DNA of 64,000 nt. Origin: a virus. The notes beneath the pieces are model-generated. The model made no database searches. It worked only from the letters and a program-made list of their open reading frames with translations, and was not told the origin of the DNA. The stretch is taken from positions 34,412-98,411 of IMG/VR virus record IMGVR_UViG_3300045391_002681, one strand, 5' to 3'. Of this stretch, positions 1 through 54,527 are shown in pieces. The first letter of the stretch is position 1. Each line of letters opens with the position of its first letter. The position numbers and the translations under genes were made by a program.

Positions 1-987
1 CGCCGAGTAGAACATCTGCTGGCTCATGTACCACTTGGCGCCAGGCAGGGCGTATTGCGGCAGCTTGCCCATGGTGCCGGTGAAGTCCGCCACAGTGAGC
101 GCCGTCAGGGTCGCGGACGAGGTCTGGTATTGGCCGGCGGTGTGGTTGCCGTCCGCGAAGATGGTGGAGACGCCGCGGATGCCGCCGTACGAGGAAGTGC
201 CGTCGCCGTTGAAGCCAGCGTCGTCTTCCTTGGCCGCGAAGGCGTAGGCGATTTCACCCACCAGCCAGTCGGCGATGGACACCACGGCGTCCTCGGCGAT
301 CTCGTTGGACATGCGGGTGAGCGCGCCGAGCTTCTTGGCGGTCAGGTTCACCGCGTCCCAGGAAGCCTGGGACTCGCTCACCGCCTGGTTTTCGCCGGTG
401 AAGAATGCGGTCAGACCGCCGGTGCGGCGCGGCCAGTTCAGGGTGTCGGAGCCCATCGGGACGACCTGGCACTCGCGGCGGAACACGCCGAACTGCTCGC
501 GCAGGACGATGATGTTGGCCAGCAGCTCTTCCGGAACCAGGAAGCCGCCGGCGCTGTCCACGCCCTCGCCCTGGGCCTTGGTCACGGGGATGCCGCGCGA
601 CTTGCACCAGTCGATTGCCTCGGCGTTGCCGAAGATCGTGGCCTTGAACCACATGCCGGCGGTGTAGGCCTGGTCGACGGCGCGGACGGTCTGGCCGGCC
701 ACTTCGCGGTCCTTGAAGTGCTTCAGGCTGCCATAGACCTTATGGGCGCTGGGCGGCGCCGAGGGCGTCAGGCGGTCCTGGCCAGGAACGGGGGTGGCGA
801 GGCTGCGGGCGATCGCCTGGGCGTCCTCCAGCTGCTTGATGCGCTTCTGCAGTTCGGGGATCGTGCCGTCCTTCAGGGCGTCATAGACGTCCTGCTTGAA
901 GCCGTCGGCTTCGGACTTGCCGGCCATCGCTTCGAGTTCGTCGACAGCCTTGCTCAGCTGCTGACGCAGTTCATGGATCTTCGCCAT
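1..987 (-). CDS. Major capsid protein, HK97 fold with N-terminal delta (coiled-coil) domain; runs off the window
   Basis: Not in the ORF track; manual translation from ATG 987: MAKIHELRQQLSKAVDELEAM...TKAQGEGVDSAGGFLVPEELLANIIVLREQFGVFRR...LTAKKLGALTRMSNEIAEDA...AAKEDDAGFNGDG. Confidence 0.93.
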   Translation of the reverse strand, partial: MAKIHELRQQLSKAVDELEAMAGKSEADGFKQDVYDALKDGTIPELQKRIKQLEDAQAIARSLATPVPGQDRLTPSAPPSAHKVYGSLKHFKDREVAGQTVRAVDQAYTAGMWFKATIFGNAEAIDWCKSRGIPVTKAQGEGVDSAGGFLVPEELLANIIVLREQFGVFRRECQVVPMGSDTLNWPRRTGGLTAFFTGENQAVSESQASWDAVNLTAKKLGALTRMSNEIAEDAVVSIADWLVGEIAYAFAAKEDDAGFNGDGTSSYGGIRGVSTIFADGNHTAGQYQTSSATLTALTVADFTGTMGKLPQYALPGAKWYMSQQMFYSA

Positions 988-1115: not shown

Positions 1116-2600
1116 TCAGTTGTTGGTGGGCAGGGACGCCTTCAGGCGCGCGACCTCTGCGAGCCGCTTTTCTTCAGGAGTCATGTCGACGGGGTCATCG
1201 GGCCCGACCGCGCTCGGCTCCGGCGTGCCACCGCCGTCGTCGAGGTCGGTTCCCTCCTCCACTTCGTCGTCCGGCTCATCGTCGAGGACGGACTTGATGC
1301 AGTCGGTGGCCATGGCGTGGTAGCTCATGGCCCGCTCCAGCATCGCCTTCGTCGCGGCCGAGACACGGCGCCCGGCCTTCAGGGCAACTTCGACGGCCTC
1401 CCTGATTTCGGTCGAGTCGATCTTGAGCAACAGCGTCTGGACGCTCTTGTCCGGCTTCATCATCGCCTCGTAGTGGTCGAGCACCGCCCTGCCCGTCTCC
1501 TTGACGCTGTCTGGGATGTCGGATTGCGGCAGGCGGGAAGCGGCGGCGCGGATGCCCGACGCCATCGCCGTTAGCTTGCCGTCGGCCACTCGGGCGAACG
1601 GGAGCTTGTAAGAGCCGCGCAGCTTGGGGGCCGAGGCGTCGTAGGCCAGGAAGCCCTTGCGCGCTTCGGCCGGGTCGAAGTCATCGCCGCCGGCATGTTC
1701 GAAGATCGAGGCCTCGGCGGTGCCCCCGTCCCAGGCGCCCTCTTCGTCCAGCGGCAGATCGCGGGCGGCGCCGCATTTCCAGTCCTCGCCGGCTTTGGTC
1801 TCCTCGATGGCGCGCAGCGTGTAGCCCGGCTCCAGGATGAGCAGTTCGTTGTGGTCCTGGCTCCACCGCTTGAAGGACTCGCGCATCCGCTCTAGCCCCT
1901 TGGCGGAAACGTCGCGGTCGCCCTGGATGTAGTATTGAACGCCTGCGCCGGTCCGGGCCTGGAGGCGAAGGGCCTCGATGTCCTTGCGGGGCATGAAGAT
2001 CGTGTCGCCGCTGTCGAGCACCTTTTCGGCCCATTCCTGGAGCGGCCGAGTGTCGACGCCCATGCTGCGGGCCTCACCGAGGGCATTGGGATTGCACGGC
2101 ACCGGGCAGACGGAGATTTCGAGGAGGGTCTGCTTCTTGAAGTCGATGCCGTACGGCCGGTTCTTGTCGGACGTGAACGCCCACTCCTTCGGCAGGAAGC
2201 CGACCGAAACGGCGTTGAGGAACTTGCCCTTGACCAGGCGATAGATGGTGTCGGCGAACTCGTAGATGTCAGGCGTGGCGAACTCGATGTCGCCGACCAG
2301 CTCGCCGCCTTGCACGCTCACGTTGGACGCACGCCCGATCGGCGGCTCCCAACTCATGTGGCTGAATAGCGCGACCGGGTTGCGCTTGAAGATGCCGAGG
2401 TCCCAGCCCTTCGGGTCTATGCTATCGCCCGAATGGTCGACCGTCGCATCGGAGAACACGAAGCGCTGCGTGCGCGATGCTTCGTCGCCGACTTGCTGCG
2501 GCTCGGCCGTGGCGAACTTGAACAGCGTGGCCTCAGGCTGCTGGCCACCGTCCTTCACCGCAGCGCGGAAGGCGTCTGCGTCCAAGAGCTTCATGGTCAT
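1116..2600 (-). CDS. HK97-family prohead protease with long C-terminal extension
   Basis: SDATVDHSGD, NPVALFSH, AVSVGF and LLEISVCPVPCNPNA motifs; lies between portal and capsid. Confidence 0.92.
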   Translation of the reverse strand: MTMKLLDADAFRAAVKDGGQQPEATLFKFATAEPQQVGDEASRTQRFVFSDATVDHSGDSIDPKGWDLGIFKRNPVALFSHMSWEPPIGRASNVSVQGGELVGDIEFATPDIYEFADTIYRLVKGKFLNAVSVGFLPKEWAFTSDKNRPYGIDFKKQTLLEISVCPVPCNPNALGEARSMGVDTRPLQEWAEKVLDSGDTIFMPRKDIEALRLQARTGAGVQYYIQGDRDVSAKGLERMRESFKRWSQDHNELLILEPGYTLRAIEETKAGEDWKCGAARDLPLDEEGAWDGGTAEASIFEHAGGDDFDPAEARKGFLAYDASAPKLRGSYKLPFARVADGKLTAMASGIRAAASRLPQSDIPDSVKETGRAVLDHYEAMMKPDKSVQTLLLKIDSTEIREAVEVALKAGRRVSAATKAMLERAMSYHAMATDCIKSVLDDEPDDEVEEGTDLDDGGGTPEPSAVGPDDPVDMTPEEKRLAEVARLKASLPTNN

Positions 2601-2609
2601 GGCGGTCCC

Positions 2610-3668
2610 TTACGGCGCGACCAGCACGGCGAGGCTGCCGGCGTTGGTCGAGTCGCCCATGTCGTGGATCACGGCGTCGAAGCGCTCCGTGGCGAGGATG
2701 GCGATCTGGTCGGTGTCGAGATAGCGATGGTCGCTGCGGGCAATGGTGAGGCCGCGGCGCTGGCCGAGGACGGCGGCGGCGTACATGTCGCCGAACGCCA
2801 TCATCGCCTTGCCCGAGGTGACGCTGGAGCCGAGCGGCAGTTTCTGGCTCATGACAACCGGGAAGCCGAGGTACATCGGCGTCGGGATGCCGTCGGCCTC
2901 GCCTTCATGCAGGCCGCCACCCCCAGCGGAGGCCAGGCGCACCATCGTCTGGCCAAAGCCGGTGACGCTCACGAACCACGCCGCACGCGGGAGCGCCGAG
3001 GCTCGCACCGCGCCGACCAGCTTTCCGAGGTCCGCGCCGGTCAGCGAGGCGAAAGCGTCATTGCTGGCGGCGACGTTGGCGGTCCCGTGGCTGCCGTCGG
3101 TCGCGAGCGGGCCGATGCCGCGCATCCCGCCATAGGTCGAAGACCCATCGCCGTTGAACGCGCAGTCGTCTTCCTTCGCGGCCAGCGCCCAGGCCATCTC
3201 GTTGGCGACGTAGTCGACTAGGTCGACGATGGAGTCCTCGTCCAGTTCGCTGGACAGGGTGACGAGCGCGGCCAACTTCTTGGCGGTGAGTTGGACCCCG
3301 TCCATGTTGGTCGAGGTCGCGGCACCGGTCGCCGCCGAGCCGCCCTCGCTCAGGAAGAAGGCGGCGGCCGTGCCGGTGCGGCGCGGAAAGAGAGAACTGT
3401 CCGAGCCCATCGGCCAGACACAGGCCCGGCGCCGGAAGGCGCCGAAGCTGTCGCGCAGGTCGAGGATGGCGTTTTCAAGCTCAGTTGGGACGAGGAAGCC
3501 GCCGCCGGAGCCGATGCCCTCGCCTTGGGCCTTGCGGATCGCCACGCCCTTCTTGTCGCACCAGGTCCGCGCTTCGGCGTTGCCGTAGATTGTGGCCAGA
3601 AGCCACTTGCCGGCGCGCTCATAGCGGGCGTCGATCTCCGGGCCGGAGCCGGGAAATGCTCGTTTCAT
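2610..3668 (-). CDS. Second HK97-fold capsid protein paralogue (no coiled-coil delta domain)
   Basis: KAQGEGIGSGGGFLVP, LTAKKLAALVTLSSELDED and AAKEDDCAFNGDG align with 1-987. Confidence 0.9.
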   Translation of the reverse strand: MKRAFPGSGPEIDARYERAGKWLLATIYGNAEARTWCDKKGVAIRKAQGEGIGSGGGFLVPTELENAILDLRDSFGAFRRRACVWPMGSDSSLFPRRTGTAAAFFLSEGGSAATGAATSTNMDGVQLTAKKLAALVTLSSELDEDSIVDLVDYVANEMAWALAAKEDDCAFNGDGSSTYGGMRGIGPLATDGSHGTANVAASNDAFASLTGADLGKLVGAVRASALPRAAWFVSVTGFGQTMVRLASAGGGGLHEGEADGIPTPMYLGFPVVMSQKLPLGSSVTSGKAMMAFGDMYAAAVLGQRRGLTIARSDHRYLDTDQIAILATERFDAVIHDMGDSTNAGSLAVLVAP

Positions 3669-3683: not shown

Positions 3684-5015
3684 TCAGTCTTGTGGCGCGG
3701 AGGGGTCTTCAGTCGCCGCCGGGTCGCCACGGCCGCCCGCTGCGGGCGCTCCGGTCACGTCGCTTCCCGGACCGGTTTCCTTGCCGGCCGGTTCGAACCC
3801 GATCGGCGCGACATTGGTCGGCTGGTAGAGGTCGTCGCCGCCATCCATGTCTTCCCAGCCGTCGGCCCATTCCGCTTCGGCGCGGCGGGCCTGGTTGGGC
3901 TTCATGAACATCCCGACGATGCCGGTGCGGTAGGCGTTGTAGCGGGCCGTCATGTTGGCCCGCATGAGGATCGAGGTATCGAACTGAACGATCAGCCCCT
4001 GCTCGGCCAGGCCGAAGTCGTGAGCCAGCTTTGCTTCCCAGCGCCCAAGGTCGCCGGAAACCGGACCGTTCATGTATTCCTGGTCCATCTGCTCGACGGT
4101 GGCGCCGTTGGCGCCCGGAACACCGAGCTTGTGCAGAGGCATTCGGTAGAGGCGTGCGATCTCCGGGACTTGGAAATCACGCGAGGCGACCAGCTCGGCG
4201 TCCTTGGCCGACATGCCGAGCGGCTGCCACTTCAGGCCCTGCTCGAGCACGGCGGTCTCGCCGGCGTTCTGCAAGCCCTGGCGGCGCTTCTTCCAGTCCT
4301 CGCCGATGCGCTTGGCGGCTTCTGGGGTCAGCTTCCCGTCGGTCGTGAGCACGCCGCCGAGGTTGGTGCTATTGGCGCTCAGGCGCCCGGCCAGTTCCTG
4401 TTGAGATAGGGCCAGGCCGATAGCTTCACGCGCCAGGGCGATCCGAGAGGCGCCGTAAAGCGAGTTGTCGAGCGCCATCCAGCGCAGATGCAGCATGTCC
4501 TCTGACGGGATCATCAGAGGCATGTCTTCGAGCACGGCGGTCTCGTGCAGGCCGCGACGCGCGACCTGGTAGAAGTACTGACCGCCAGGGGCCTCGTAGA
4601 TCCAAACCCGGTCTGGGTTGACCGGGATCAGGGCCGTGACGTTCCCGCGCCAGTCCCGCAGCTTCACCGCATAGGCGTTGCCGCGGAGCAGGATAGAGAC
4701 CTGCATCTGCTCCTTGAACTCGAAGGCGCTCTGGTAGTCGTTCGGGCGCTGAAGCACCTTCTCCAGCGGGTGGTCGGCCACGATCTGCCGGCCGCCATTG
4801 GGCAGGCACCGATAGACGTGAACCGGAAGCTTGGCGATGTCCTCGGCGCGGATCGAAACACAGGCCTGGACGGTCGACACCTGTAGCGCGGTCAATTGGG
4901 TGACCGCCATGCCGCCGGCGCTGACGGACGTGGGGCCGTACTCCGACCACCACTCGTCGATCGTCATCGACTTCTTGCCGCGGATGGCGTCGACGACGCG
5001 CGACCAGTAGCTCAT
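3684..5015 (-). CDS. HK97-family portal protein
   Basis: VQACVSIRAEDIAKLPVHVY, LLRGNAY, VLEQGLKWQPL, EIARLYRMP. Confidence 0.95.
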   Translation of the reverse strand: MSYWSRVVDAIRGKKSMTIDEWWSEYGPTSVSAGGMAVTQLTALQVSTVQACVSIRAEDIAKLPVHVYRCLPNGGRQIVADHPLEKVLQRPNDYQSAFEFKEQMQVSILLRGNAYAVKLRDWRGNVTALIPVNPDRVWIYEAPGGQYFYQVARRGLHETAVLEDMPLMIPSEDMLHLRWMALDNSLYGASRIALAREAIGLALSQQELAGRLSANSTNLGGVLTTDGKLTPEAAKRIGEDWKKRRQGLQNAGETAVLEQGLKWQPLGMSAKDAELVASRDFQVPEIARLYRMPLHKLGVPGANGATVEQMDQEYMNGPVSGDLGRWEAKLAHDFGLAEQGLIVQFDTSILMRANMTARYNAYRTGIVGMFMKPNQARRAEAEWADGWEDMDGGDDLYQPTNVAPIGFEPAGKETGPGSDVTGAPAAGGRGDPAATEDPSAPQD

Positions 5016-5032: not shown

Positions 5033-6907
5033 TTAGAAGAACAGCAGGCCACGCTCCTCGTAGACGAGCCGGGTTTGTCCGACCGTCCGGGTCGCGGCCC
5101 CGACCGCCATGGCCAGCGCCACGAGCGGGTCGATGCGTTGCGTCGCCTTCCGCTTGGAGAACCAGCGGTTGTCGAATGGGTCGTGTTCGATCGCCGCCGA
5201 CGCGCAGGCCGAGACGAGCACGGGATTTCGCAGTAGCCGGATACGCCGCTCAAGGATCAGCTCCTCGAGCGTGTTCAGCGACCCCGGCATCCACAGTCCT
5301 TCCGGCGGTTCCTCACCGGCCAGCTTCGCCGCCTCGATCTCTGCATCCGTCGGCCTGGCCCGGCGCTTGCCACCCTGGGGATGCTCGACCTCGTTCAAGG
5401 TCAGGCCAAGGGCGTCCAGCTCGTCCGAGAGCTTGCGGTAGGCGTAGCGGTCGTAGGCCACGGACCGGATGATGAAGTCGCTGTCGTCCTCGGCGATCGC
5501 GGAGGCGACGAAGTCCATGCGGACGGTCGGCCCCGGCGTGGCCCTTAGGTGGCCCTCGGCGACCCAGACATCGTATGGCGCCCGGTCGGCAAGCGCCCGC
5601 TCAGCCAAGGTCTGGGCCGGCGTCCAGGCCTCGATCCAGGCGTCATAGGTCGGCTTGAGGATGGTCGTTCCATCCTCGCGCTCGACCTCGATTTCTCCGG
5701 TCTGCACGACGCAGGCCTTCGCCGTGAGATCCTTGGTTCCCGACAGGTCGAGGCCGAGGTCGATTTCCTTGCCGCGGTGCTCCTCCGGATCGAAGTCCGC
5801 AAGAACCGCCTCCAGCGCCTCCCGGCCGATCCAGGCGTCCTCGGCATCGGTCCAGACGCAGAAGTGAAGGCGCATCACGCCGTTCAATTTGCCCGGCATG
5901 GCCTTGGCCTGACTGACGACCCCGGCGAGGTATTCCGGCGTGATCGTCACGCCCAGGAGTGGGTTGGCCTTGGCCCAGCAGCTCGGATCGGTGAGCGGGT
6001 CGTCCCCGTCATCCAGGGAACAAACAAAAGCGAAGGTGCTGTCGTCCTCGATTTCGCGCCGAGCGACTCGGATCGCGTGGTCGTGCTCTTCCCAGCAGAT
6101 CGAGTTCCGGTCTGAGCCGGAGTTGGTGATCATCAGCAGGAGCGGCTGGCGGCGGAACTTGAAGCCGCGCTCCAGCATCTCCATCGTCGAGCGGTCAGGG
6201 TGCTCGTGAACCTCGTCGCAGAGCGCGACGTGGGGCCGCGGGCCGGAGCCGGTCTTGCCCGCCTCTTTCGAGATTGGCCGGAAGAACGAGCCCGACGGAT
6301 GGTGGGCGATGTTGTATTCCCGTCCGGGGCCACCGCTGAACTGAAGCCGCTTGGCCAGGGCCGGCGACTTGCGCACCATCTTGACCGCGTCGCGGAACAG
6401 GATTCCGGCCTGCTCCTTGCGGGCGCCGGCGGCGTAAATCTCCGCGCCGGCCTCGTCGTCCGCTGTCTGGCAGTAGAGACCTATTCCGCCCGCAAGCGGT
6501 GACTTGCCATTGCCCTTGCCCTGCTCGACGTAGGCGCGGCGGAACCGACGGTTGCCGTCCGGCCGCTTCCAGCCGAAGATCGAGCCCAGGATGAACGCCT
6601 GGGACGGATGCAGCCGGAACGGCTGACCCTCAAACTGGCCCTCGCTGAGCTGCAGGACCGTTTCGAAGAACCCGAAGATGCGGTCGGCCGCCTCGGTGTC
6701 GAATCTCAGGCCGCGCTCATGGCCGCGCTCGAGGTCGTCCAGGTGTCGCCTGGCGGCGTCGCGGACATGCGGGCCGGCAACGATACGCCCTTCCGCTACA
6801 TCCAGCGCGTACTGCGTCGTGCGGTCAGTTGAAGAAGCGATCGGCCGGGTCTTCGTCCTCGTCATCCGTCTGGCCGACCTTCGTTTCATCGACCGGCGTC
6901 GCCGCAA
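5033..6907 (-). CDS. terL: Terminase large subunit (start may be about 6865)
   Basis: Walker A GKGNGKS, Walker B LCDEVH, ITNSG, nuclease motifs GLDLS and RIDPLVA. Confidence 0.95.
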   Translation of the reverse strand: MRRRRSMKRRSARRMTRTKTRPIASSTDRTTQYALDVAEGRIVAGPHVRDAARRHLDDLERGHERGLRFDTEAADRIFGFFETVLQLSEGQFEGQPFRLHPSQAFILGSIFGWKRPDGNRRFRRAYVEQGKGNGKSPLAGGIGLYCQTADDEAGAEIYAAGARKEQAGILFRDAVKMVRKSPALAKRLQFSGGPGREYNIAHHPSGSFFRPISKEAGKTGSGPRPHVALCDEVHEHPDRSTMEMLERGFKFRRQPLLLMITNSGSDRNSICWEEHDHAIRVARREIEDDSTFAFVCSLDDGDDPLTDPSCWAKANPLLGVTITPEYLAGVVSQAKAMPGKLNGVMRLHFCVWTDAEDAWIGREALEAVLADFDPEEHRGKEIDLGLDLSGTKDLTAKACVVQTGEIEVEREDGTTILKPTYDAWIEAWTPAQTLAERALADRAPYDVWVAEGHLRATPGPTVRMDFVASAIAEDDSDFIIRSVAYDRYAYRKLSDELDALGLTLNEVEHPQGGKRRARPTDAEIEAAKLAGEEPPEGLWMPGSLNTLEELILERRIRLLRNPVLVSACASAAIEHDPFDNRWFSKRKATQRIDPLVALAMAVGAATRTVGQTRLVYEERGLLFF

Positions 6908-7202
6908 GCTTGGACAGGATCGCGCTTAAGGTCTGGATCTGGTTCACGCCAACGTCCGGCTCTTCCATCCTGACCTGGAGGATGCAGGCCAGCCGAAGCA
7001 GCGCCCGGTGCGAGTTGTTCAGCCACGGCAGATCGGTGCGGAACTCTTCCCACGCCGCGCACTGCGGCTCGGTCATGCTGGCGTACGGCTTGCCCAACGG
7101 CCTGGTGCGCTTCGGCGCCTGTCGGCCTCTGAACCGGTCAGGGTTTTTTACGGCTGCGCCGCTCGTTTCTGCCTTAGCTGCCGGCAATCTTGGCCGAGCC
7201 AT
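6825..7202 (-). CDS. terS: Terminase small subunit
   Basis: MARPRLP start, KLAATPVD motif, directly upstream of terL. Confidence 0.8.
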   Translation of the reverse strand: MARPRLPAAKAETSGAAVKNPDRFRGRQAPKRTRPLGKPYASMTEPQCAAWEEFRTDLPWLNNSHRALLRLACILQVRMEEPDVGVNQIQTLSAILSKLAATPVDETKVGQTDDEDEDPADRFFN

Positions 7203-7645
7203 GTGAACTCATGTTCTGAATTGTGGATGCGTGCGTTTTGGGTCGGCCCGGTTTCGGCACTCGCGCCCATTGGCCTTCGATACCCCCATCCATGCCATCG
7301 GTTGAAGGGATGGCGCGGGTCAGTGGGAAAGCCGTCGTTGCTGACGGCGGACGAGAAGCCATGGCGGTCGTTCTCTTGGCCGCTCGCCTCCTCGGCCTGG
7401 ATGGGGCCGTCGTGGCAAGGCTGGCAGACCGACTGGAGGTTCGTCGGATCACGGAACAGGTTGGCGTCGCCCTTGTGGGGCTTACGGTGGTTGACGACGG
7501 TGGCGCTGACGACGAAGCCCTTGGCCCGGCAGCGCTCGCAGATCGGTTGGCATTGAAGCTGGGCCTTGCGGAGCGCTCGCCACTCGGCTGTCTGGTAGAG
7601 CTTCCTGTATGCCGCAGCTTCTGGGCTGCGCTGGTCGGGACGCAC
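7148..7645 (-). CDS. Terminase-associated HNH endonuclease
   Basis: CERC...VVNHRKPHKGD...NLQSVCQPCHD; upstream of terS, typical of cos phages. Confidence 0.88.
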   Translation of the reverse strand: MRPDQRSPEAAAYRKLYQTAEWRALRKAQLQCQPICERCRAKGFVVSATVVNHRKPHKGDANLFRDPTNLQSVCQPCHDGPIQAEEASGQENDRHGFSSAVSNDGFPTDPRHPFNRWHGWGYRRPMGASAETGPTQNARIHNSEHEFTWLGQDCRQLRQKRAAQP

Positions 7646-7648
7646 GGC

Positions 7649-7780
7649 CTAGTGGTGGTGCATCGCGGCGTAGAGCTGCGTCGCGGCAAAGATGGCGATG
7701 GCCAGTTCAGCGAGCGCACCAAGGCGGATCAGGGATGCGCCCACGACCAGAATGGCGCGCTCGATGTCGAACGATCGCAT
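7649..7780 (-). CDS. Small hydrophobic protein
   Basis: MRSFDIERAILVVGASLIRLGALAELAIAIFAA...; TGATG-coupled to 7780-8046. Confidence 0.45.
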   Translation of the reverse strand: MRSFDIERAILVVGASLIRLGALAELAIAIFAATQLYAAMHHH

Positions 7781-8046
7781 CAGTTCGGCACCGCGAGCGG
7801 ATGACCCTCGGTAGCGCAGTCCGGGATGCGCTGAACCTTGACGTTGATGGCGCCGAGTTTCGCGCCGCCGTCCAGGACTAGCAGTTTGACGCCGTCGCCA
7901 GCGAACTTCTCCCACTCGGCTTTGATGCGCTTGACCGTTTCGGGCGACAGGCGCTGTTCGCAGGTCAGGACGAAGCGGTCGTCCGGGCCGATGGTCAGGT
8001 GCTGAAGATCGCCGATGAACCTGATCTTGGGTTCTTTGCCGAACAT
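7780..8046 (-). CDS. Small protein resembling the portal clip segment
   Basis: FVLTCEQRLSPETVKRIKAEWEKFAGDGVKLLVLDGGAKL vs portal GVLTTDGKLTPEAAKRIGEDWKKRRQG...TAVLEQGLKW. Confidence 0.65.
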   Translation of the reverse strand: MFGKEPKIRFIGDLQHLTIGPDDRFVLTCEQRLSPETVKRIKAEWEKFAGDGVKLLVLDGGAKLGAINVKVQRIPDCATEGHPLAVPN

Positions 8047-8065
8047 GATCGGGTCCGTTCGTTGT

Positions 8066-8100
8066 TGATATCGCCTACGCGTAGATGATATCGTCTACGC
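8066..8100 (+). promoter_or_regulatory. Putative operator/promoter of the RHH gene
   Basis: TGATATCG(C/T)CTACGC twice with 20-bp period, also an imperfect palindrome, immediately before ATG 8102. Confidence 0.55.
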
Positions 8101-8101
8101 C

Positions 8102-8413
8102 ATGCCCAGACCGAAGCCCGCCGAAGAGCCTGTCCAGATCGCCGTGCGCATCGCGCCTTCGCTGCTCAAGCGGTTGGACGCTGAGGCCGAGGCATCCGAG
8201 CGCAGCCGGAATGCCGTGATCGCCGAAGCGCTGGCAGCGCACATCGACGAGAGCGGAAGTCGGAGGGCGACGCAGAAACTGGCGAAGGGCCTGGCGGCTC
8301 AAAAGGCCCGCGTAGAAGCGGCCAAGCCGGCAGCGACGCCGGGACGGATGACGTTCGACGACGTGCGGCCGAAGTTCGTGCCGCGCCTCAAGCCCGACAA
8401 GGTGAAGCGATGA
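8102..8413 (+). CDS. Ribbon-helix-helix (CopG/Arc-like) protein
   Basis: VQIAVRIAPSLLKRLDAEAEASERSRNAVIAEAL. Confidence 0.8.
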   Translation: MPRPKPAEEPVQIAVRIAPSLLKRLDAEAEASERSRNAVIAEALAAHIDESGSRRATQKLAKGLAAQKARVEAAKPAATPGRMTFDDVRPKFVPRLKPDKVKR

Positions 8414-30050: not shown

Positions 30051-30259
30051 GCGCTCCGATCACCCGGGCCCTGATCGAGCGAGCTATCACGGCCATGGAA
30101 TCCACCGGCCATCCCGTGAAAGGCGTTCGCCTGTCCCCAGATGGGTGCGTTAGCCTATTGACCGAGACGCCCGCTGGCGCCCTAGCGTCCAATGACGACC
30201 AGGGAGATTGGCTGAGTCTTGCCGGCGAGACGGACGTACCTCGTGCCCAAGGGGCTTAA
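30047..30259 (+). CDS. Putative excisionase
   Basis: 70-aa ORF overlapping the integrase start. Confidence 0.5.
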   Translation: MSAPITRALIERAITAMESTGHPVKGVRLSPDGCVSLLTETPAGALASNDDQGDWLSLAGETDVPRAQGA

Positions 30260-31370
30260 ACCCGTCAAGCGCAAGCTGGCGAACGGCGATGTGCGGACCT
30301 ATTGGTATCACCGCGCCACCGGAAAGGCCCTGACGCACGATCCCGAGACCGCTGAGGGCCTTCTAGAGGTCGCCGCGCTGGACAGGCGCAGCGGCGTCAC
30401 ATCGGCCGCCAGCGGCCATCCTGGCGGCTCCTACGCGGAATTGTGGGCTGAGTACCGCAAGAGCCCCGAGTGGAAGAACCTGCGGCCCCGCACCCGATCC
30501 GATTACCAGGCCGTCCGTGACTGGCTGGGCGACAAGGCCGCCGAGCGCATGATGCTGAAGCAGCTCACGTCAGGCGACCTATTCAAGCTCCGCGACAAGG
30601 CGTTCAAGGCCAAAGGGCGCCGGTTCGCCAACTACGTCGTCCAGGTCATGCGCCTCACGCTGAAGTGGGGCAAGAAGCGCGACATGCTGGCGGTCAACCC
30701 GGCCGAGGAAGTCGATCAGATCCGAAAGCCGACCGGAGAGGCTAAGGTCAACCGGGCCTGGACCATGGCCGAGGTCGAAGCCTTCGCCAACGCCGCGCCG
30801 CCGCACCTGATCCTGCCGTTCATGCTCGGCCTCTTCGCGGGGATGCGCCAGGGCGACGCCCTGCACGTCACCTGGAGCGCCTATGACGGCCTCGCCCTAC
30901 GGTGGATCGCCAGCAAGAACGGCGAGCCCTGCATGGCCCCGGTGAGCGGCGATTTCAAACGCCTGCTGGACGCGGCCAAGGAGCGCCGGGGTAAAGCCGT
31001 CCAGATCGCCGTCACGTCCACCGGCACGCCCTGGACACAGAGCGGGTTCCGCGCCTCGTTCTTCAAGCTGCTGCGGACGCTCCGCGCCGCCGGCGCCGTG
31101 CAGCCGGGCTGCACCTTCCACGGCCTGCGCCACACCATCGGCTCAACAGCGCGTGATGACGGCCAGAGCGAATCGCGGGTGGCCGCCGCCATCGGCGACC
31201 GGAGCCCCGCCATGGCCCAAATTTACGGCCGCGACGCCGACAAGGCCGAGGCGCAGACCACGGTTCTGGAGGGCGTGCAGAAACGCTTTGCGAACATCGA
31301 TTGGAAAATATCGGCAGCTGATTGGAAAACGGCTCGCTCCCCGAAGGGTGCGAAATCGCCGAAAACCTGA
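30219..31370 (+). CDS. int: Tyrosine integrase
   Basis: GMRQGD (R), SKNG (K), FHGLRH, QIYG (Y); adjacent to the tRNA att core. Confidence 0.93.
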   Translation: MPARRTYLVPKGLKPVKRKLANGDVRTYWYHRATGKALTHDPETAEGLLEVAALDRRSGVTSAASGHPGGSYAELWAEYRKSPEWKNLRPRTRSDYQAVRDWLGDKAAERMMLKQLTSGDLFKLRDKAFKAKGRRFANYVVQVMRLTLKWGKKRDMLAVNPAEEVDQIRKPTGEAKVNRAWTMAEVEAFANAAPPHLILPFMLGLFAGMRQGDALHVTWSAYDGLALRWIASKNGEPCMAPVSGDFKRLLDAAKERRGKAVQIAVTSTGTPWTQSGFRASFFKLLRTLRAAGAVQPGCTFHGLRHTIGSTARDDGQSESRVAAAIGDRSPAMAQIYGRDADKAEAQTTVLEGVQKRFANIDWKISAADWKTARSPKGAKSPKT

Positions 31371-45310: not shown

Positions 45311-46870
45311 TCACGCGGAAAATTTCATTCCTATGGCGTATATCCCGGTATTGGTGTGACTCACCGCCGATACACTAGTGGGCGCATTCGAGGTCTGCAA
45401 AAACCATGCGATCACTGTTGTTGCGCCAAACACGCCAAACATTTTGGCCATGTCTATGGGTAGGTTTGGGTACATAGACACCGCCGATGCATTGGACATT
45501 GTCCGAAGCGACGTCCCGGTTGTTCGGTTGGTTATCACCAGGCATATCGCGTAGTTAACGCCCGCTGATAGTACCGTCGGCCCAATAGTAAACTCTATTT
45601 GCTGGTTGCCCGTGGCCACGGTAGTAAAACTTGAGCCAGAGGCGACAGTTCCAGTTATATTGCACGATGCGTCTACAGTCGCAATGAAGGCGGAATACAC
45701 ATCGCCAATGTTAGCTACATTGAACGGCGCATATATGGCGCTGACGGTAATCGTCTTTGCCAGTATAAGAACATTTCCGTAGGTGGCGAAACCGCCCGTA
45801 TCAGTGGCCGCGAACCGTGTGGCGGGAAACGCGTAGGATAATGCGCCCCCGCCCCCTGGCGAAACCCCAATGGCCGTAAGCACCCCGCCCGAGGCAATAA
45901 TGGTCGTGTTATCGACCTTCACGCCCCCAAGCTGAGAAGCTGAGCCAACCGGCAAATCAGCGCTCGCCAGAGCCCGGAATGCCGGCGCAGCGGCCCCTCC
46001 GCTGGATGGTCCCGCGAATACCAGATTGGCACTTTGTGTATTGAGCGAGAACGTCAGGGTTCCTGACGCAGTGACCGGAGAGCCCGAGACGGTGAAGATC
46101 GAAGGGGCGGCGAGTCCTACGGAGGTGACCGAGCCCGAGCCGCCCGACGACGCAATGGTGATCGAGCCGCCCGCGTTGGTGATCGTGACGCCCGACCCCG
46201 CCGTCAGCGTCGCCTTGCTAAGCCCCCCCGTCGAGGTGTTGCCGATCAGCAGTTGGCCATCCGTATAGGAGGATTGCCCGGTGCCCCCATTGCCGAACGG
46301 TAGCGTTCCGGCCACATCCGCCGCTAGGTCCACAGCGGCCCACGTCGGGTTGCCCGAGGCGTTGCCATGCAGGACGGTATGCACGGTCCCCTGATTGGCG
46401 AAATCTGCCGAGGCGAGAACGGCTGTCGCCCCGGTGATCAGGCGTCCCTTAACGTCGTAGGTCCCCTTGGTATAGGTTCCGGCCGTCGCCACCGTCGCCA
46501 GCGTCAGGACGCCCGTCGTGGTGTTGAGCGTCGCGTCTCCTGAGACGGTGAACGCACCGAAGGACCCACCGTTGTTGTACTGGATTTGACCCGACGCCCC
46601 CGAAGGCGTGGCCGTGATCGTCACCAGCCCCGCCGCAGACGCAACGTCGATGTTCGCGCCCTCGGTGATGACGTGGGCGTTGGGGATAGACGGATCGGCC
46701 GCCGTCACCACGAAATCCAGGTTCTGGAACGCGGTGAAGGTGTCGGGGATGATCTGCGCGACCTGAAGCTGGATACGCTCGAAGGCCAGCAGGGTCCGGG
46801 GGTCCTTGAACACCTCGCCGAGCTGCTGGCGGTTCAGGGTCGTCAGAGTTTGAAGCGGGAGCGTGCTCAT
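45311..46870 (-). CDS. Tail needle/fibre protein
   Basis: Follows gp10; G/T/S-rich fibre repeats; AT-richer C-terminal tip. Confidence 0.7.
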   Translation of the reverse strand: MSTLPLQTLTTLNRQQLGEVFKDPRTLLAFERIQLQVAQIIPDTFTAFQNLDFVVTAADPSIPNAHVITEGANIDVASAAGLVTITATPSGASGQIQYNNGGSFGAFTVSGDATLNTTTGVLTLATVATAGTYTKGTYDVKGRLITGATAVLASADFANQGTVHTVLHGNASGNPTWAAVDLAADVAGTLPFGNGGTGQSSYTDGQLLIGNTSTGGLSKATLTAGSGVTITNAGGSITIASSGGSGSVTSVGLAAPSIFTVSGSPVTASGTLTFSLNTQSANLVFAGPSSGGAAAPAFRALASADLPVGSASQLGGVKVDNTTIIASGGVLTAIGVSPGGGGALSYAFPATRFAATDTGGFATYGNVLILAKTITVSAIYAPFNVANIGDVYSAFIATVDASCNITGTVASGSSFTTVATGNQQIEFTIGPTVLSAGVNYAICLVITNRTTGTSLRTMSNASAVSMYPNLPIDMAKMFGVFGATTVIAWFLQTSNAPTSVSAVSHTNTGIYAIGMKFSA

Positions 46871-48276
46871 CAGACGCTCAGGGGCTCGACTTGCACTTCA
46901 AGCGCCGCCCACGTGGCAATCGAGGCGTTGGCGCTGCGGAACCTGAGTCCGACATAGTTGCGGAAGCGCACCTTCGGCCGCCACTGCACGCGCTTGCGGC
47001 GCTCGCCGAAGCCGCCCATGGAGATGAAGCGTTCCTGGCTCCAGGTCTGCCCGTCGAGCGTCCAGGAGAGGGCGCAGGTGGGGTTGACGCCGAACGGCGC
47101 GCGACCCGGAAGGCCCGCAAGCTCGACAACCTGGATGATGCCGCCCTTCCCCCCGTTGTAGAGGAACTGCGTATCGAACTGCCAACCGACGATGGCGCCC
47201 CAGCGCAGCGAAGACGAGTCGTCCAGGTAGCCGATGCGGCCGGTCGAATCCCCGACCATCCACCGGCCATAGACCTGGGTCATGAACCGGGGCGAATAGG
47301 GCTGATCCATCAGCGCCCCGTCCGCCAGGATGTGCCAGACGGGCTCCTTGTTCAGCAAGGACGCTTGGTGCATGTAGACCAGCGTCTTGTCCGGGCCGTG
47401 GATGTAGAAGCGCTGTTCGTCCTTCTCCACGCGCTGTTCGCATTGGATCAGGGCTTGCTGGGCCACGGTCCAACCCGCGATGATCCCGTCGATCTCGGAG
47501 GTGGAGATGCCGATGGATTGGCCGGCGCCGGCCAGATAGACGCTCAACGCCTCGCCCCGGCCCGATCCGACGAAGGCGAAGGTTTCGAGGAAATAGGCCC
47601 ACGCATGGGTGCCGACCACGCCGCGCGGGATCAGGCCGCCCGGATTGTTGGTGAACGGAAACCCCGTCCCGCCCAAGTCCTGGAAGTTCTGGATGGTGTT
47701 GGTCCCGAGCGCATAGACCTCGCCCCGCACCTTGGCCAAGGCGACAACCGGGTCAGGATCAGCCTCGGCAGACCCGTACTTGAGCGGATCGACGCTATAG
47801 GGGTCGTTCAGTTCGGTGACGACGAGGTTTTCCCCGTCCGTGGACATGAAGTAGCTGTCGATCCAAAGGCCGGCGATGGGCGAGCCCAAATCCGGGTCGG
47901 TAACTTGGGTCACCAGGCCCGTGGTCGTCTGGTAGTAGAACTGGTTGAGGTTTGACCAGATCACCAGCCGGTCGAAGCTGTAGTCCAGGCTCACCGGCAG
48001 GCCGTTGTTGCCCACGTCGCCGAGCACCACGACGGTTCCGTCAGCGGCCACGGAGACCAGCTTGGAGCCCATCACGCGGTAGCAGACGCCATTCCAGTTG
48101 ATGCCGCCGCGATCCGCGCCGGGTCCGGTCCCGATCTGCGTCACGCCGGGAACGTCGGAGATGTAGCCTTCCGAAAGCCCGCTCTGGACTAGGGTCGGCT
48201 CCAAATTCACCGGGTATGACGTATGGAAGGCGGCGCTACTATCGGCGTAAGCGCCCTGGAGCAGCGGCACCCTCAT
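46870..48276 (-). CDS. Packaged-DNA stabilisation protein (P22 gp10-like)
   Basis: YPVNL, YRVMGSKL, SAEADPDP, WTLDGQTWS. Confidence 0.88.
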   Translation of the reverse strand: MRVPLLQGAYADSSAAFHTSYPVNLEPTLVQSGLSEGYISDVPGVTQIGTGPGADRGGINWNGVCYRVMGSKLVSVAADGTVVVLGDVGNNGLPVSLDYSFDRLVIWSNLNQFYYQTTTGLVTQVTDPDLGSPIAGLWIDSYFMSTDGENLVVTELNDPYSVDPLKYGSAEADPDPVVALAKVRGEVYALGTNTIQNFQDLGGTGFPFTNNPGGLIPRGVVGTHAWAYFLETFAFVGSGRGEALSVYLAGAGQSIGISTSEIDGIIAGWTVAQQALIQCEQRVEKDEQRFYIHGPDKTLVYMHQASLLNKEPVWHILADGALMDQPYSPRFMTQVYGRWMVGDSTGRIGYLDDSSSLRWGAIVGWQFDTQFLYNGGKGGIIQVVELAGLPGRAPFGVNPTCALSWTLDGQTWSQERFISMGGFGERRKRVQWRPKVRFRNYVGLRFRSANASIATWAALEVQVEPLSV

Positions 48277-49037
48277 CGGCAGCGGCTCGGGTCAAGCACC
48301 CCGCTAAAGCCGAAGGGTTGCCAGATGCCGTAAGGCTTCTGTCCGGCCCCTCGGGGCGTTCCGCCTTGCAGGACGCGTTCCGGGGTGACGCTATAGCGGG
48401 CGCGAAGGGCGTTCATCGCCAGCCCGGCGGTGACCTTGGCTTCCACGCTCAGGGTCTTGCCGATGGCCGGGGCGACCACGAACGCCAATGCCGAGGCCGC
48501 CGGCAACACCGCGTCGTCCGGAATGCCGCTCGGGTCATCCAGGTCGCTTCCGCCAATCACGGTCGGCGCGTTGTAGTTCAGGTCGAGATTGTTGGTCCGC
48601 CACATCGCCATCTGGGCGTCCGTGGCGAACAGGGCCGATGACCACTCTTCCGGCGTGACGTTGAACTCGTAGTCCGCGAGGCCCATCGTCTGGAACGTCA
48701 GGTTCAGGATTTGCCGCTTGGTATTGGTCGCCGGAGTCACCGCAACGGCGGTGTCGAGCACCTGCAGTTGGATTTCGCGGGTGAGCACCTGGCCGCCGAC
48801 CGTATCGACGGTGTTGCTCAGGATCGCGGTTTCACCATTGGCCCCGCCAGCCACAACGAAGCGGATGAAGGTCCCGAAGTTGAGCGGGGGTTCCGGATCG
48901 CTGCTGATCGTCACCGTTCCCGACGTAACCGTCAGGGTGAAGGTCTTGATCAGGTCGCCGGCCTGGAGCTGCTTGGACCAGTCGGCGAAGTAGGTGACGG
49001 TATCGCCGGACGGCTTGGGGACGAGGTATTCCATCAC
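48273..49037 (-). CDS. Head-tail adaptor (P22 gp4-like) with extra N-terminal beta domain
   Basis: C-terminal TPEEWSSAL..TDAQMAMW...DDPSGIPDDA...APAIGK...PRGAG. Confidence 0.75.
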   Translation of the reverse strand: MMEYLVPKPSGDTVTYFADWSKQLQAGDLIKTFTLTVTSGTVTISSDPEPPLNFGTFIRFVVAGGANGETAILSNTVDTVGGQVLTREIQLQVLDTAVAVTPATNTKRQILNLTFQTMGLADYEFNVTPEEWSSALFATDAQMAMWRTNNLDLNYNAPTVIGGSDLDDPSGIPDDAVLPAASALAFVVAPAIGKTLSVEAKVTAGLAMNALRARYSVTPERVLQGGTPRGAGQKPYGIWQPFGFSGVLDPSRCR

Positions 49038-49246
49038 GCCCCCTTCGGCGGTCTGCCTCTGCGCTTGAATTGGACGATCTCGGCTTCCGCCTCCGGGTCG
49101 TTCAGCGGAACGTCGGACGGGTGACGCACCCAGCCTTCGGCTAAAGCGCCCTCAACCTCAGCCTCGGCGAACACACGATGCTCGACGCACCAATCCCACA
49201 CGTGCGGGTTCGGCTCGTCGGCTTGGCGGTACAGCATCACGGTCAC
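49034..49246 (-). CDS. Small conserved head-region protein
   Basis: MLYR...EVEGALAEGWVRHP. Confidence 0.65.
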   Translation of the reverse strand: MTVMLYRQADEPNPHVWDWCVEHRVFAEAEVEGALAEGWVRHPSDVPLNDPEAEAEIVQFKRRGRPPKGA

Positions 49247-49575
49247 GACAGGCCTACTCCCGTGGTGAAGCAGATGTTGGCGGTCCCGGACGCCATGATC
49301 GCGGCCGCGTAGAGGCCGGTCGTGAGGGTGTCGGGGACGGTGACGCTCAGGACGCTGGTCGAGCCCGGCATCAGCGGGATATCCGAGGTCGTGGCGGCGA
49401 CGCTGCTGTTGCCGAAGCGGATGTAGGCGACCGTGGTCCCGTCGTTGGTGACGCGGAATTGGATGCGCTGGCCGCCCGGAGACGGCTGGCCGCCGAGGAT
49501 GTGATTGCCGGTCGTGGTGGTCGCGGCGATTTTGACCGTTGCGCCGTCTGTCGGCTGGAAAGCGATGGGCAGCAC
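49243..49575 (-). CDS. Putative virion/decoration protein
   Basis: Beta-rich ORF directly after the coat terminator. Confidence 0.6.
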   Translation of the reverse strand: MLPIAFQPTDGATVKIAATTTTGNHILGGQPSPGGQRIQFRVTNDGTTVAYIRFGNSSVAATTSDIPLMPGSTSVLSVTVPDTLTTGLYAAAIMASGTANICFTTGVGLS

Positions 49576-49592
49576 TGGCGGGCCTCCTTGTG

Positions 49593-49625
49593 GAAAAGGA
49601 GGGCGGGACCGAAGCCCCGCCCCTC
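49593..49625 (-). terminator. Hairpin terminator after the coat gene
   Basis: GAGGGCGGGGC-TTCG-GTCCCGCCCTC followed by CTTTT. Confidence 0.65.
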
Positions 49626-49642
49626 AGTCGGGGGGAAGCGCG

Positions 49643-50914
49643 TCAGGTCTGTCCGAACAACTCGATGCCGGCCATCTCGGGGTTCAGGCACACCGTCCCC
49701 CAGAGCGCATCGAAGCGGTACTTGGTCGAGAGGTCGTTGATGGAGCCCTGGCGGGTCATCACCAGTTCCAGGCCGTCGTCCGTGGTTCCGCGCATCACGG
49801 CCAGGCCGCTGTCGGGAGCCGGCATCAGGCGGCCGGGCAGGATTTCCATCACGTCGCCGGCCCAGAACACGTTGGCGGGGGCCGCCACTGTGTTCAGGAA
49901 GGTGATCGCGGCGGTGTCAGCCGGAGTCGCGGTGACGTTCTGGTATTGGGCCTCGGCGTTGGTCGAGCCGCCGTTGGAGATGATCGGCGGGGTGATGGTG
50001 ATCACGCCCGAGCCGCCGGCGCCCGACACGATGGCCGTCACGCGGAAGGTCTTGGCGAGGCCGGTGTCCTGCTTGGTGATGTGGTGCACCGCGTTGACGC
50101 CGGCGATCTGGAACGCGTCGCCGACCGCGATGGTCCCCGAGGTCACTGCGACCGTGAGGTTCTGGAAGCGGTTGTCCACGTTGGTGTAAACGCCGTCCGC
50201 TTGCAGGACCGTGGCGGCCGGGGTGTAGAACTGATTGGCGCCGTTCACGGTGACGGTGACGGCGGTCTTGGCGGCCAGTCGCTTGGCGTAGTTGAGCTTG
50301 TAGGTCTGGAAGCCGGCCACTTCGCCGAGATAGGCGCGCTCGTAGGCTTGCAGCGACTTGGAGTTGTCGAGCACGCGCGAGGCCAGGTTGGCGGCCATGT
50401 TGTTGTAGTCCACCGGGCTCAGGCCGAAGACGCGGCTGTCTTCCTGGATGCCCAGCTGGGTCATGGTCGAGTCGGCCAACGCGATGTCGGTGAAGCCGGT
50501 CGCCGCCGCCGTGTTCTTGATCACGATGGAGCCATAGGCCGCCGCGGTGTTGGTCAGGGACACGTTGATGTCGGAGGCCAGCTTCTGGCGCGCGCCCGAG
50601 CCGAGCCGGCCTTCCTGAAGCGCGTCGCGGAGCTGCTTGGCGGTCAGGGCAAACGGAACGGTCTGCTGGTTGTTGATCGACGCCGGGACGGAGAGCTGGG
50701 TCACGTCCTTGAAGTTGGACGACATGTCGCCGCCGCCCGAATAGGAGGTCATGATGTAGGGTTGCGGGCGCCAGATGATGTCGCCCGACCGTTCCATGGT
50801 CTCCTGGTTGGTCTTGTAGACCTTCGCCATCTTGGTGGCGACGACGGCGTCATTGAAGCCTTCAAGCAGTTGGTCGAAGGCGACGGTTTCTTCTTTGGTG
50901 AAGGCGTTGGCCAC
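49643..50914 (-). CDS. Major capsid protein, P22 gp5 family
   Basis: MANAFTKEETVAFDQLLEGFND...MERSGDIIWRPQPY...KYRFDALWGTVCLNPEMAG. Confidence 0.93.
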   Translation of the reverse strand: MANAFTKEETVAFDQLLEGFNDAVVATKMAKVYKTNQETMERSGDIIWRPQPYIMTSYSGGGDMSSNFKDVTQLSVPASINNQQTVPFALTAKQLRDALQEGRLGSGARQKLASDINVSLTNTAAAYGSIVIKNTAAATGFTDIALADSTMTQLGIQEDSRVFGLSPVDYNNMAANLASRVLDNSKSLQAYERAYLGEVAGFQTYKLNYAKRLAAKTAVTVTVNGANQFYTPAATVLQADGVYTNVDNRFQNLTVAVTSGTIAVGDAFQIAGVNAVHHITKQDTGLAKTFRVTAIVSGAGGSGVITITPPIISNGGSTNAEAQYQNVTATPADTAAITFLNTVAAPANVFWAGDVMEILPGRLMPAPDSGLAVMRGTTDDGLELVMTRQGSINDLSTKYRFDALWGTVCLNPEMAGIELFGQT

Positions 50915-50953
50915 TTGCGTAGTTCCTTCTGGCCCCTCGGGGCTCTGGGACGG

Positions 50954-50974
50954 GCGGCGTCATCTCGACGCTGC
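50954..50974 (-). promoter_or_regulatory. Conserved hairpin in the coat leader (GCAGCGTC-GAGAT-GACGCCGC)
   Basis: Matches 1012-1032. Confidence 0.6.
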
Positions 50975-50984
50975 TGTCAGGTTG

Positions 50985-51833
50985 CTACCGGGCCTTGGCC
51001 TTCAGCTGGCGCTTGTATTGGACGACCTTGGTGCGGTCCCCCGAGCGCGCGGCTTCGGCTTCCAGCCGTTCGAGATGCTTGTCCACCGGGGCAGAGAGCG
51101 GGGCCGAACCCCTGACGATCTGTTCCGGCGGCGGCGGTGCGTTGCGCTTGTTGGTCACGGTCAGTTTCCCTTCCAGCCTTCCAAGCTCACCGGCCAGTGC
51201 GATGGGGTTCGAAATCTTGGCGAGTTCGGCGGCTTTGGCGGGGTTTCGGCCGAGATAGAGCGTCACGGCGGCGCTGTTCTTCGGCGCCCACGTAAGCACG
51301 GCCTGCTGCGTCTCGTTGAAGGCCGACTGAACTTCCTCAAGTGCTCGGGGAAGGTCTTTGGCCTTCAGGTCGGTGAATTGCTTCCCGACCTCGGCGACGC
51401 GGGTGTTCCACGCTTCCTGCTGCTGCTGCTGGGCTTTCAGCGCCTCGGCGTTCTGCCTGTCGGCTTGGGCCTTTCGCGCCTGCCACGCCTCGTATTCCTG
51501 CTCGAACTTGTCCGTGTCGAATTCGCAGGTTTCGAGGGTTGGCTTGTCGCCTACCTCGATCCTCGGCGGTTCCTGCTGGCGGTTTTTGGCCTCCAGCTCG
51601 CGGGTCAGTTCGCGGTTACGGGCGCGCAGTTCGCGGAGGACGCTGTTGTCCGGCTGCTCGCTTGGGGGTGGCGCTCCCCCTTCGCCCTCGAAGATGACCA
51701 GGACCTCGTCGTCTTCGTCGCCCTCAGGCGGCTCGGCCTCGACTTCGGTCCGTTCCTCCGGAAGCTCAACGTCCCCGGCGGGGATGTCGATTTCCGGCTC
51801 TTCGATGGCGTCGTCTGCCATTGAGTGCCCCAT
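50985..51833 (-). CDS. Scaffolding protein
   Basis: Acidic N-terminus, KPTLE..DTDKFE, C-terminal ARSGDRTKVVQYKRQLK. Confidence 0.85.
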   Translation of the reverse strand: MGHSMADDAIEEPEIDIPAGDVELPEERTEVEAEPPEGDEDDEVLVIFEGEGGAPPPSEQPDNSVLRELRARNRELTRELEAKNRQQEPPRIEVGDKPTLETCEFDTDKFEQEYEAWQARKAQADRQNAEALKAQQQQQEAWNTRVAEVGKQFTDLKAKDLPRALEEVQSAFNETQQAVLTWAPKNSAAVTLYLGRNPAKAAELAKISNPIALAGELGRLEGKLTVTNKRNAPPPPEQIVRGSAPLSAPVDKHLERLEAEAARSGDRTKVVQYKRQLKAKAR

Positions 51834-51882
51834 CTCGCTCAGCCTTTGGCGGTAGGCCGGATACCGATGGGACTTGGGTCGC

Positions 51883-51903
51883 GCCGCGAATACGTCTGCG
51901 CAA
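51883..51903 (-). promoter_or_regulatory. Late-gene motif, copy 2
   Basis: TTGCGCAGACGTATTCGCGGC upstream of scaffold/coat. Confidence 0.6.
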
Positions 51904-51910
51904 GCGGGGA

Positions 51911-52177
51911 TTAATCGTCGGGCTGCATGACCTCGAAGGAGAGCGCGCAGCCGGCTCGGGCGATCACCGCCGCAGCCGCGCCTTGGGAGCGGTCGCGCAT
52001 CGTCCAGCCGCGCGATGTGGCCTGATGGGCGCCGCCGAGCACATAGACGATGGCCTCGGGCTCTTCGCCGCTCTGGGCGACGTAGTCGTCATACGCGCCC
52101 CCGATCTGTGCGAGGAATTCCGCCTTGCGATCACGCTGGATCGGTCCCGAGGACAGGGAGACGACGTTGTCGCTCAC
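51911..52177 (-). CDS. Hypothetical protein
   Basis: GTGA-coupled to the portal stop. Confidence 0.55.
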   Translation of the reverse strand: MSDNVVSLSSGPIQRDRKAEFLAQIGGAYDDYVAQSGEEPEAIVYVLGGAHQATSRGWTMRDRSQGAAAAVIARAGCALSFEVMQPDD

Positions 52178-54306: not shown

Positions 54307-54337
54307 CTAACGTCCCTGCGCTCTGGCAGGGGGTCAG

Positions 54338-54358
54338 GCCGCGAATACGTCGGGTCAA
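54338..54358 (-). promoter_or_regulatory. Late-gene motif, copy 3
   Basis: TTGACCCGACGTATTCGCGGC upstream of the portal gene. Confidence 0.65.
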
Positions 54359-54525
54359 CGGCTGCGGCAATCCAGCGGTGTGAGGGTCTCAACGATCCGG
54401 GCGCGCGTATCGTCATCGATGTCGGACGACTTGAGGATGCACAGCAGGAACTCACCCGCCAGACTTTCGGGATCAACCCACATGTCGACCGGTCCCTTAG
54501 GCTCAAGGCGCGGCTTTAGTTCCAT
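54355..54525 (-). CDS. 56-aa hypothetical protein between terL and portal
   Basis: MELKPRLEPKGPVDMWVDPESLAGEFLLCIL...; manual translation. Confidence 0.45.
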   Translation of the reverse strand: MELKPRLEPKGPVDMWVDPESLAGEFLLCILKSSDIDDDTRARIVETLTPLDCRSR

Positions 54526-54527
54526 GA

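Follow-up and report, generated by a model that had tools for sequence, protein, structure and literature searches.

The first gene of a phage late operon encodes an 88-aa protein with a segment that recurs in the portal and in the prohead protease of the same operon. We show that this protein belongs to a large family of small, acidic phage proteins, about 70-100 aa long, which has no name so far and is called the SMALL family here. As judged by profile comparison, its core is a homologue of the clip domain found in HK97-type portals. The gene is late and accessory, and is inserted at junctions between genes of head and packaging operons.

The window, i.e. the whole stretch of 64,000 nucleotides that was analysed, covers bases 34412-98411 within a 98.4-kb virus record. 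An HK97-type phage module, whose late genes are on the minus strand, occupies its first 31 kb (Table 1). By codon position, the GC content of the 88-aa gene (0.65/0.39/0.82) resembles that of other genes of the window. The 43-aa ORF behind it is 66% hydrophobic. It starts on an ATG that overlaps the stop codon of the 88-aa gene (TGATG), and 3 nt separate its end from the HNH start. This ORF may be translationally coupled and may tie a small membrane peptide into the packaging operon. On the other side of the 88-aa gene, the 55-nt spacer towards the adjoining ribbon-helix-helix gene has the CGATATCA motif twice and a promoter-like site, and may serve as an operator for the late operon.

Two further features of the record are noted here. 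The head operon has two paralogous HK97-fold capsid genes, of which the one between portal and protease is without the coiled-coil N-terminal (delta) region present in the other. The same virus record also contains a second head module of P22 type and looks like two phage genomes in tandem.

Table 1. Coordinates of the features discussed, with domain assignments and search results
Feature	Position	Strand	Remarks
Major capsid gene	1-987	-	cut by window edge; Pfam Phage_capsid
S78 prohead protease, 494 aa	1116-2600	-	S78 domain, residues 55-174
Protease insert, six-frame match 2	1791-1928		E 1.6e-6
Protease insert, aligned segment	1803-1946		protease residues 219-266
Capsid paralogue without delta domain	2610-3668	-	between portal and protease; Pfam Phage_capsid
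HK97-family portal gene	3684-5015	-	Pfam PF04860, E 7e-89
Portal, six-frame match 3	4209-4352		E 8.6e-5
Portal, aligned segment	4218-4355		portal residues 221-266
Large terminase	5033-6907	-	Pfam TerL_ATPase and TerL_nuclease
Candidate small terminase	6825-7202	-	after HNH in transcription order
HNH endonuclease	7148-7645	-	Pfam HNH and PHROG HNH families; same operon, next annotated gene downstream of the 88-aa gene
43-aa hydrophobic ORF	7649-7780	-	second in transcription order
88-aa gene, free clip-like protein (SMALL family)	7780-8046	-	ATG start; first in transcription order; six-frame match 1, E 1e-32
Core of the 88-aa protein homologous to portal clip	7846-7974		aligned segment, residues 25-67
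Spacer between 88-aa and ribbon-helix-helix genes	8047-8101		candidate operator
Promoter-like site in this spacer	8065-8094	+	
Ribbon-helix-helix (CopG/Arc-like) gene	8102-8413	+	adjoins 88-aa gene, transcribed divergently
Integrase-like gene	30219-31370		
P22-type second head module	46870-56135	-	
P22-type module, stabilisation protein	46870-48276	-	
P22-type module, coat	49643-50914	-	
P22-type module, portal	52174-54306	-	

The small protein family and the portal clip

Close relatives of the 88-aa protein number only five, with 66-86% identity, 86-92 aa and 33 invariant columns. A profile of these five relatives, run against 1.84 billion representative proteins, returned 503 clusters at E<=1e-3 and 88 at E<=1e-10. 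The best 150 members listed are mostly of 68-120 aa; the longest has 276 aa, and none is of portal length. From the profile search we obtained the family alignment A2 with 99 sequences. Weak matches to Pfam Phage_portal were found for 29 of the 99, every other Pfam family being matched by at most one member, and PHROG matches likewise go mostly to portal families. Among these 99 members no Pfam or PHROG model of the family's own was found, and the head-completion and gpW-like families of both collections are matched neither by them nor by the window protein. From the ESM Atlas came only unnamed viral clusters, and in 50,697 records of cultured phages tblastn found no match for two members. The family is acidic, with a median pI of 5.1.

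The core of the 88-aa protein is preceded by a conserved N-terminal extension (residues 8-24; consensus I-R-F-L-G-D-L-Q-R-L ... P-G-D-R-F), which has no counterpart in the portal. This N-terminal motif is the most conserved part of the family. Some members also have C-terminal extensions, namely P0051 and P0065 (about 200 aa) and P0140 (276 aa); two of the three have a conserved second domain in common, with the motif E-G-W-S-x-E-H-D-D-x-H. These extended members may be fusions or read-through gene calls.

The core, the portal segment and the protease segment have in common the pattern V/I-L-T-x-D-x2-L-S/T-x-E-x3-R-I/L-x3-W, a glycine and V/I-L-E/D-x-G-M/L-K-L/W, with about 13 key positions. 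In pairwise comparison, BLASTP of the small protein against the portal finds 11 of 22 residues identical (50%; E 1e-5 for this single comparison), and finds nothing for the small protein against the protease or for the portal against the protease. Pfam Phage_portal (PF04860) matches the 88-aa protein over profile positions 161-209 of 321 with 16.6 bits (E 0.0045) and so falls short of the gathering cut-off of 39.1 bits; the protein is without the full portal architecture (wing, stem, clip and crown, about 400 aa).

Run against single window sequences, the A2 profile matches residues 221-272 of the portal (P 1.2e-5) and 219-274 of the protease (P 1.8e-5). With hhalign, A2 matches an alignment of 116 portals with a probability of 96% (P 2e-9, 52 columns), registering small-protein residues 26-77 against portal 221-275. 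The profile of the six proteases sharing the insert is matched with a probability of 94% (P 1.2e-7). Portal and insert compared directly give only a weak match in the same register (P 0.0015-0.004), so that their link is transitive, via the small-protein family. The relatedness of the three segments, proposed in the earlier note from a manual alignment, is borne out in this form. Their positions are confirmed as well: the A2 model, searched in six frames against the whole 98-kb record, returns exactly three places, which are the ones that the note had pointed out.

Controls agree with these matches. Among 75 window proteins scored with A2, the portal (38.3) and the protease (37.7) stand out, the next best reaching 20.8. 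In other loci all of 20 complete portals were matched in the clip region with scores of 28-46 (19 of them at 36-46), and 50 TerL, protease-capsid fusions and other proteins scored <=20. We consider it very improbable that the resemblance is due to chance or convergence, or that the ORF is a decaying portal fragment. Such an origin would fit a segment of only about 45 residues, single HMM matches to Pfam Phage_portal under the family cut-off, and structure searches without a portal match. It is at odds with the profile-profile P value and the clean controls, with the exactly three matches in 98 kb and the agreement of reciprocal HMM searches, and with the hundreds of conserved full-length family members. 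As to the 88-aa ORF itself, which the earlier note allowed might be a non-conserved decayed piece of a portal, the 33 invariant columns and 503 clusters rule this out and establish a conserved gene.

In the portal of RcGTA, residues 220-273 make up the clip, and the stem helices on either side of it are residues 191-219 and 274-299 (supplement of PMC7296036). Aligned with phmmer to the RcGTA chain, the window portal has its clip at residues 218-266. Mapped in this way onto a solved structure, the window portal segment is the clip domain, a placement that had been a surmise. The alternative contemplated at that time, profiles without similarity to portal clips, is contradicted by the 96% match and by the clip-region matches in all 20 further portals.

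The AlphaFold2 model of the small protein from the 99-sequence alignment (pLDDT 74, core 85-92) has a predicted strand 24-29, helix 35-49 and strands 54-59 and 63-67; a model from five sequences had pLDDT 49 and was too poor for use. The modelled order of elements is as would be expected if the helix of the small protein corresponds to the single clip helix contacted by the adaptor tail in RcGTA. Small alpha/beta folds of this arrangement are common. Fold searches in the PDB (Foldseek, VIA-align wide) and in BFVD gave no significant match, and the few portals returned from BFVD are among the non-significant rows only. A sequence-profile search of the PDB reached residues 232-277 of the HK97 portal at E 0.3. 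Its top row, a designed repeat protein with eight sub-threshold stretches, was treated as an artefact. We found no support for reading the N-terminal hairpin as an internal duplicate of the C-terminal one, or as a match to a segment of the portal or the protease (P 0.0055 or worse).

The insert of the prohead protease

In the window protease a SMALL-type domain sits after the S78 domain. The insert belongs to the SMALL family, as the matches between the insert and free-protein profiles are reciprocal: an HMM built from eight protease inserts alone, run over several thousand ORFs, retrieves 21 free small proteins at E 1.5e-8 to 2.5e-3, and no portal and no unrelated protein. One further protease (locus L046) has a copy that matches model positions 9-71 and spans nearly the entire domain; the P-x-D-R-Y motif, which precedes the clip-like core, is part of it. 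Since this motif is included, the insert is a copy of the domain of the free family and was not derived separately from a portal.

The insert is patchily distributed. Among loci fetched by their portals it was found in three of 15 recognisable S78 proteases (L036, L037 and L046). All 59 S78 proteases of the L001-type clade are without it, and so are all 20 protease/capsid ORFs in SMALL-bearing loci. Behind the insert, at about residues 280-385, the window protease has a further conserved domain with the motifs G-x-W-D-G and Y-K-L-P-F, which is absent from two shorter homologues (P0157 and P0158) and has no Pfam match.

The domain might be an old clip offshoot that shares ancestry and no partners with the portal and has another role, e.g. 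as an internal head protein, its entry into the head being provided either by the protease or by an N-terminal motif of its own. Proheads package the protease to which the domain is fused, which would suit such a role, as would the acidity of the family, the commonness of its fold and the fact that conservation is highest in the N-terminal motif, which portals lack. The gene's tight coupling to the portal in many loci, described below, speaks against it, and we regard this explanation as quite unlikely.

Genomic context and distribution of the small gene

Locus searches with the five closest homologues as queries returned no loci in any collection; with a consensus-like sub-alignment 35 loci were fetched and annotated by HMMs and Pfam. 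An Acetobacteraceae genome and a Cellvibrionaceae MAG account for two of them. In the fetched loci the small gene is always on the late-gene strand. In nine of 28 non-redundant loci the portal is the next gene recognised within 400 nt, and in seven of these nine the gap is -4 to +6 nt, which suggests that the small gene is translationally coupled to the portal gene. In three of the 28 the next gene is HNH, with an 8-nt overlap in two; the remaining non-redundant copies are on short contigs or at other late positions. Three loci (L010, L016, L027) have the small gene between HNH and TerS/TerL, and L021 has it directly before the head-completion gene. In L013 (7902-8216) it has the tail-tube gene on one side and the tape-measure gene on the other, the usual place of tail chaperone genes, and in L017 it adjoins a methylase and a DUF559 nuclease. 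L016 has two copies (3185-3415 and 7962-8222), one near HNH/TerL and one upstream of the portal. This survey of neighbourhoods, which the earlier note had proposed, ties the 88-aa gene to head and packaging modules.

Such neighbours could be read as signs of a packaging regulator, i.e. a soluble stand-in for the clip that would bind the putative clip partners (the nuclease domain of the terminase together with HNH, or else the tail of the adaptor) and time cos cleavage, motor docking or head completion. Terminase and adaptor do contact the clip (PMC10359639, PMC7296036), and HNH genes adjoining terminase genes are a known packaging feature (PMC3592412). The small gene adjoins HNH, TerS and TerL in the window and at least five other loci, and its place before the head-completion gene in L021 also fits. 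Nevertheless, the commonest position is at the portal gene and not at the terminase genes, most relatives dispense with the gene, and the protease fusion puts the domain inside the prohead, away from the terminase. We find a role of this kind rather improbable.

The free copy is absent from all 80 loci fetched by window-type portals (30-77% identical to that of the window). It is present in four of 79 loci whose portals are 55-77% identical to those of the small-gene-bearing clade, and in three of the 73 clade loci having at least 400 nt upstream of the portal (about 4%). The usual order in this clade is TerL, protease-capsid fusion, DUF7210-like gene and portal, the last two being 20-30 nt apart; in L154 the small gene lies exactly in the junction of the DUF7210-like gene and the portal. 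These counts, together with the L154 junction, identify the small gene as a presence/absence polymorphism at gene boundaries. It is dispensable for this kind of head.

The expression "head-module system" in the earlier note is thus too strong, as we deal with one accessory domain, free or fused, in about 4% of cases with closely related portals. The remainder of that interpretation fared better: relatedness, clip identity, a conserved gene and its head and packaging neighbourhood stand, and the functions suggested there keep the status of proposals.

We compared the small proteins with the clips of their own portals in 14 non-redundant pairs by permutation in a fixed alignment register. Scores against the own clip are slightly above those against other portals (mean 43.2 vs 39.4; p 0.04 overall, p 0.03 for the first strand and helix), and the signal is absent from the hairpin. 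Locus L028 contributes much of it. A match of the small protein to its cognate portal is suggestive only. In L028 the small protein (322-567) and the adjacent portal (567-1955) have in common a clip-helix stretch P-G-E-I-S ... E-E-Q-R-I, which occurs also in L031 and is lineage-specific, other portals being without it. This stretch hints at recent exchange or co-variation between the small gene and the portal gene.

A patchy accessory gene is what one usually sees in counter-defence, and the earlier note had proposed an immune decoy acting together with capsid B. Nothing in this analysis links the small protein to capsid B. As a decoy or shield, the free clip would bind or block portal sensors such as Avs4 and Avs11, or hide unassembled portal subunits. 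Avs4 and Avs11 are reported to sense portal proteins (PMC12803255), part of which the small protein copies; coupling to the portal gene would supply the small protein whenever the portal is made, and the slight cognate-specific likeness is in line with this. The same domain inside a prohead protease is hard to explain in such terms, and no defence-related neighbours were seen in the fetched loci. The portal part bound by Avs4 or Avs11 was not found in the accessible literature. A decoy is on balance unlikely.

Proposed function and comparison with known systems

The portal is the ring through which DNA enters the phage head. Its clip domains contact neighbouring subunits, adaptor tails and the terminase (PMC7296036, PMC11445458, PMC10359639), and portals produced alone often give rings of wrong size (PMC10541612). 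Tentatively, we favour a clip-type contact at the portal vertex, by which the free form would cap and the protease form recruit, because this possibility accounts for most of the facts. The domain would make a clip-type protein contact with portal subunits at the vertex. On unassembled portal subunits the free protein would stand in for the clip of the neighbouring subunit, and capping of the clip interface could control ring formation or the incorporation of the portal. The copy embedded in the protease might use the same contact, bringing the protease to the portal as prohead assembly starts.

The homology, the placement in the clip, the coupling to the portal gene, the protease fusion and the weak cognate likeness count for a clip-type contact. 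Counting against it, the gene is dispensable in most relatives and its position varies, and the protease acts inside the prohead, while the clip lies either in the shell or outside it. Moreover, the cognate signal is weak, and fold searches gave no significant portal match. A complex prediction for portal and small protein scored 0.01, which speaks neither for nor against binding. It is also conceivable, though unlikely, that both activities are combined, with a portable clip, free and coupled to the portal gene or built into the prohead protease, that caps unassembled portal subunits and thereby steers assembly and at the same time hides the portal from, or acts as its decoy for, Avs4 and Avs11.

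Both the packaging motor and the neck dock at the clip, and bacterial innate immunity targets the portal. If the small protein binds the portal or the partners of the clip, it would offer a handle on the formation and incorporation of right-size portal rings and on phage escape from portal sensing. As the family is large (about 500 clusters) and its members are short, this is easily tested.

Small portal-vertex proteins encoded beside portal genes include lambda gpW, head-completion and adaptor proteins, and SPP1 gp7. Like these, the 88-aa protein belongs to a family of small late proteins that are often encoded directly upstream of the portal. It differs in having no sequence match to their Pfam families, in a predicted fold unlike that of the helical adaptors, and in being present in no more than a few per cent of the related phages.

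Proteins that evade sensing by mimicry, the decoy strategy, are likewise accessory and small and copy a piece of the sensed protein. Unlike them, the small protein is encoded in a late structural operon, and a decoy role would be putative, by analogy. As regards the protease, C-terminal extensions of S78 prohead proteases and protease-capsid fusions also place a region after the S78 domain, which elsewhere serves targeting or scaffolding. The insert described here is distinct from other such extensions in being a separate domain that has a family of free proteins as homologues.

The closest known counterpart is the clip of HK97-family portals (PF04860; RcGTA Rcc01684 220-273, HK97 gp3; PDB 6TBA, 8CEZ). 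The strand-helix-strand-strand order, predicted in the small protein, is common to both, and the profile-profile match to the small protein covers essentially the entire clip. Unlike these portals, the small protein is free-standing, without wing, stem and crown, has a conserved N-terminal extension, and is accessory and not universal. For a free-standing clip homologue or a clip-like domain of a prohead protease we found no family model in Pfam or PHROG and no paper. As far as sequence comparison goes, the fold unit is known as a part of the portal, and its occurrence as an independent accessory family and as an insert of the prohead protease appears to be new.
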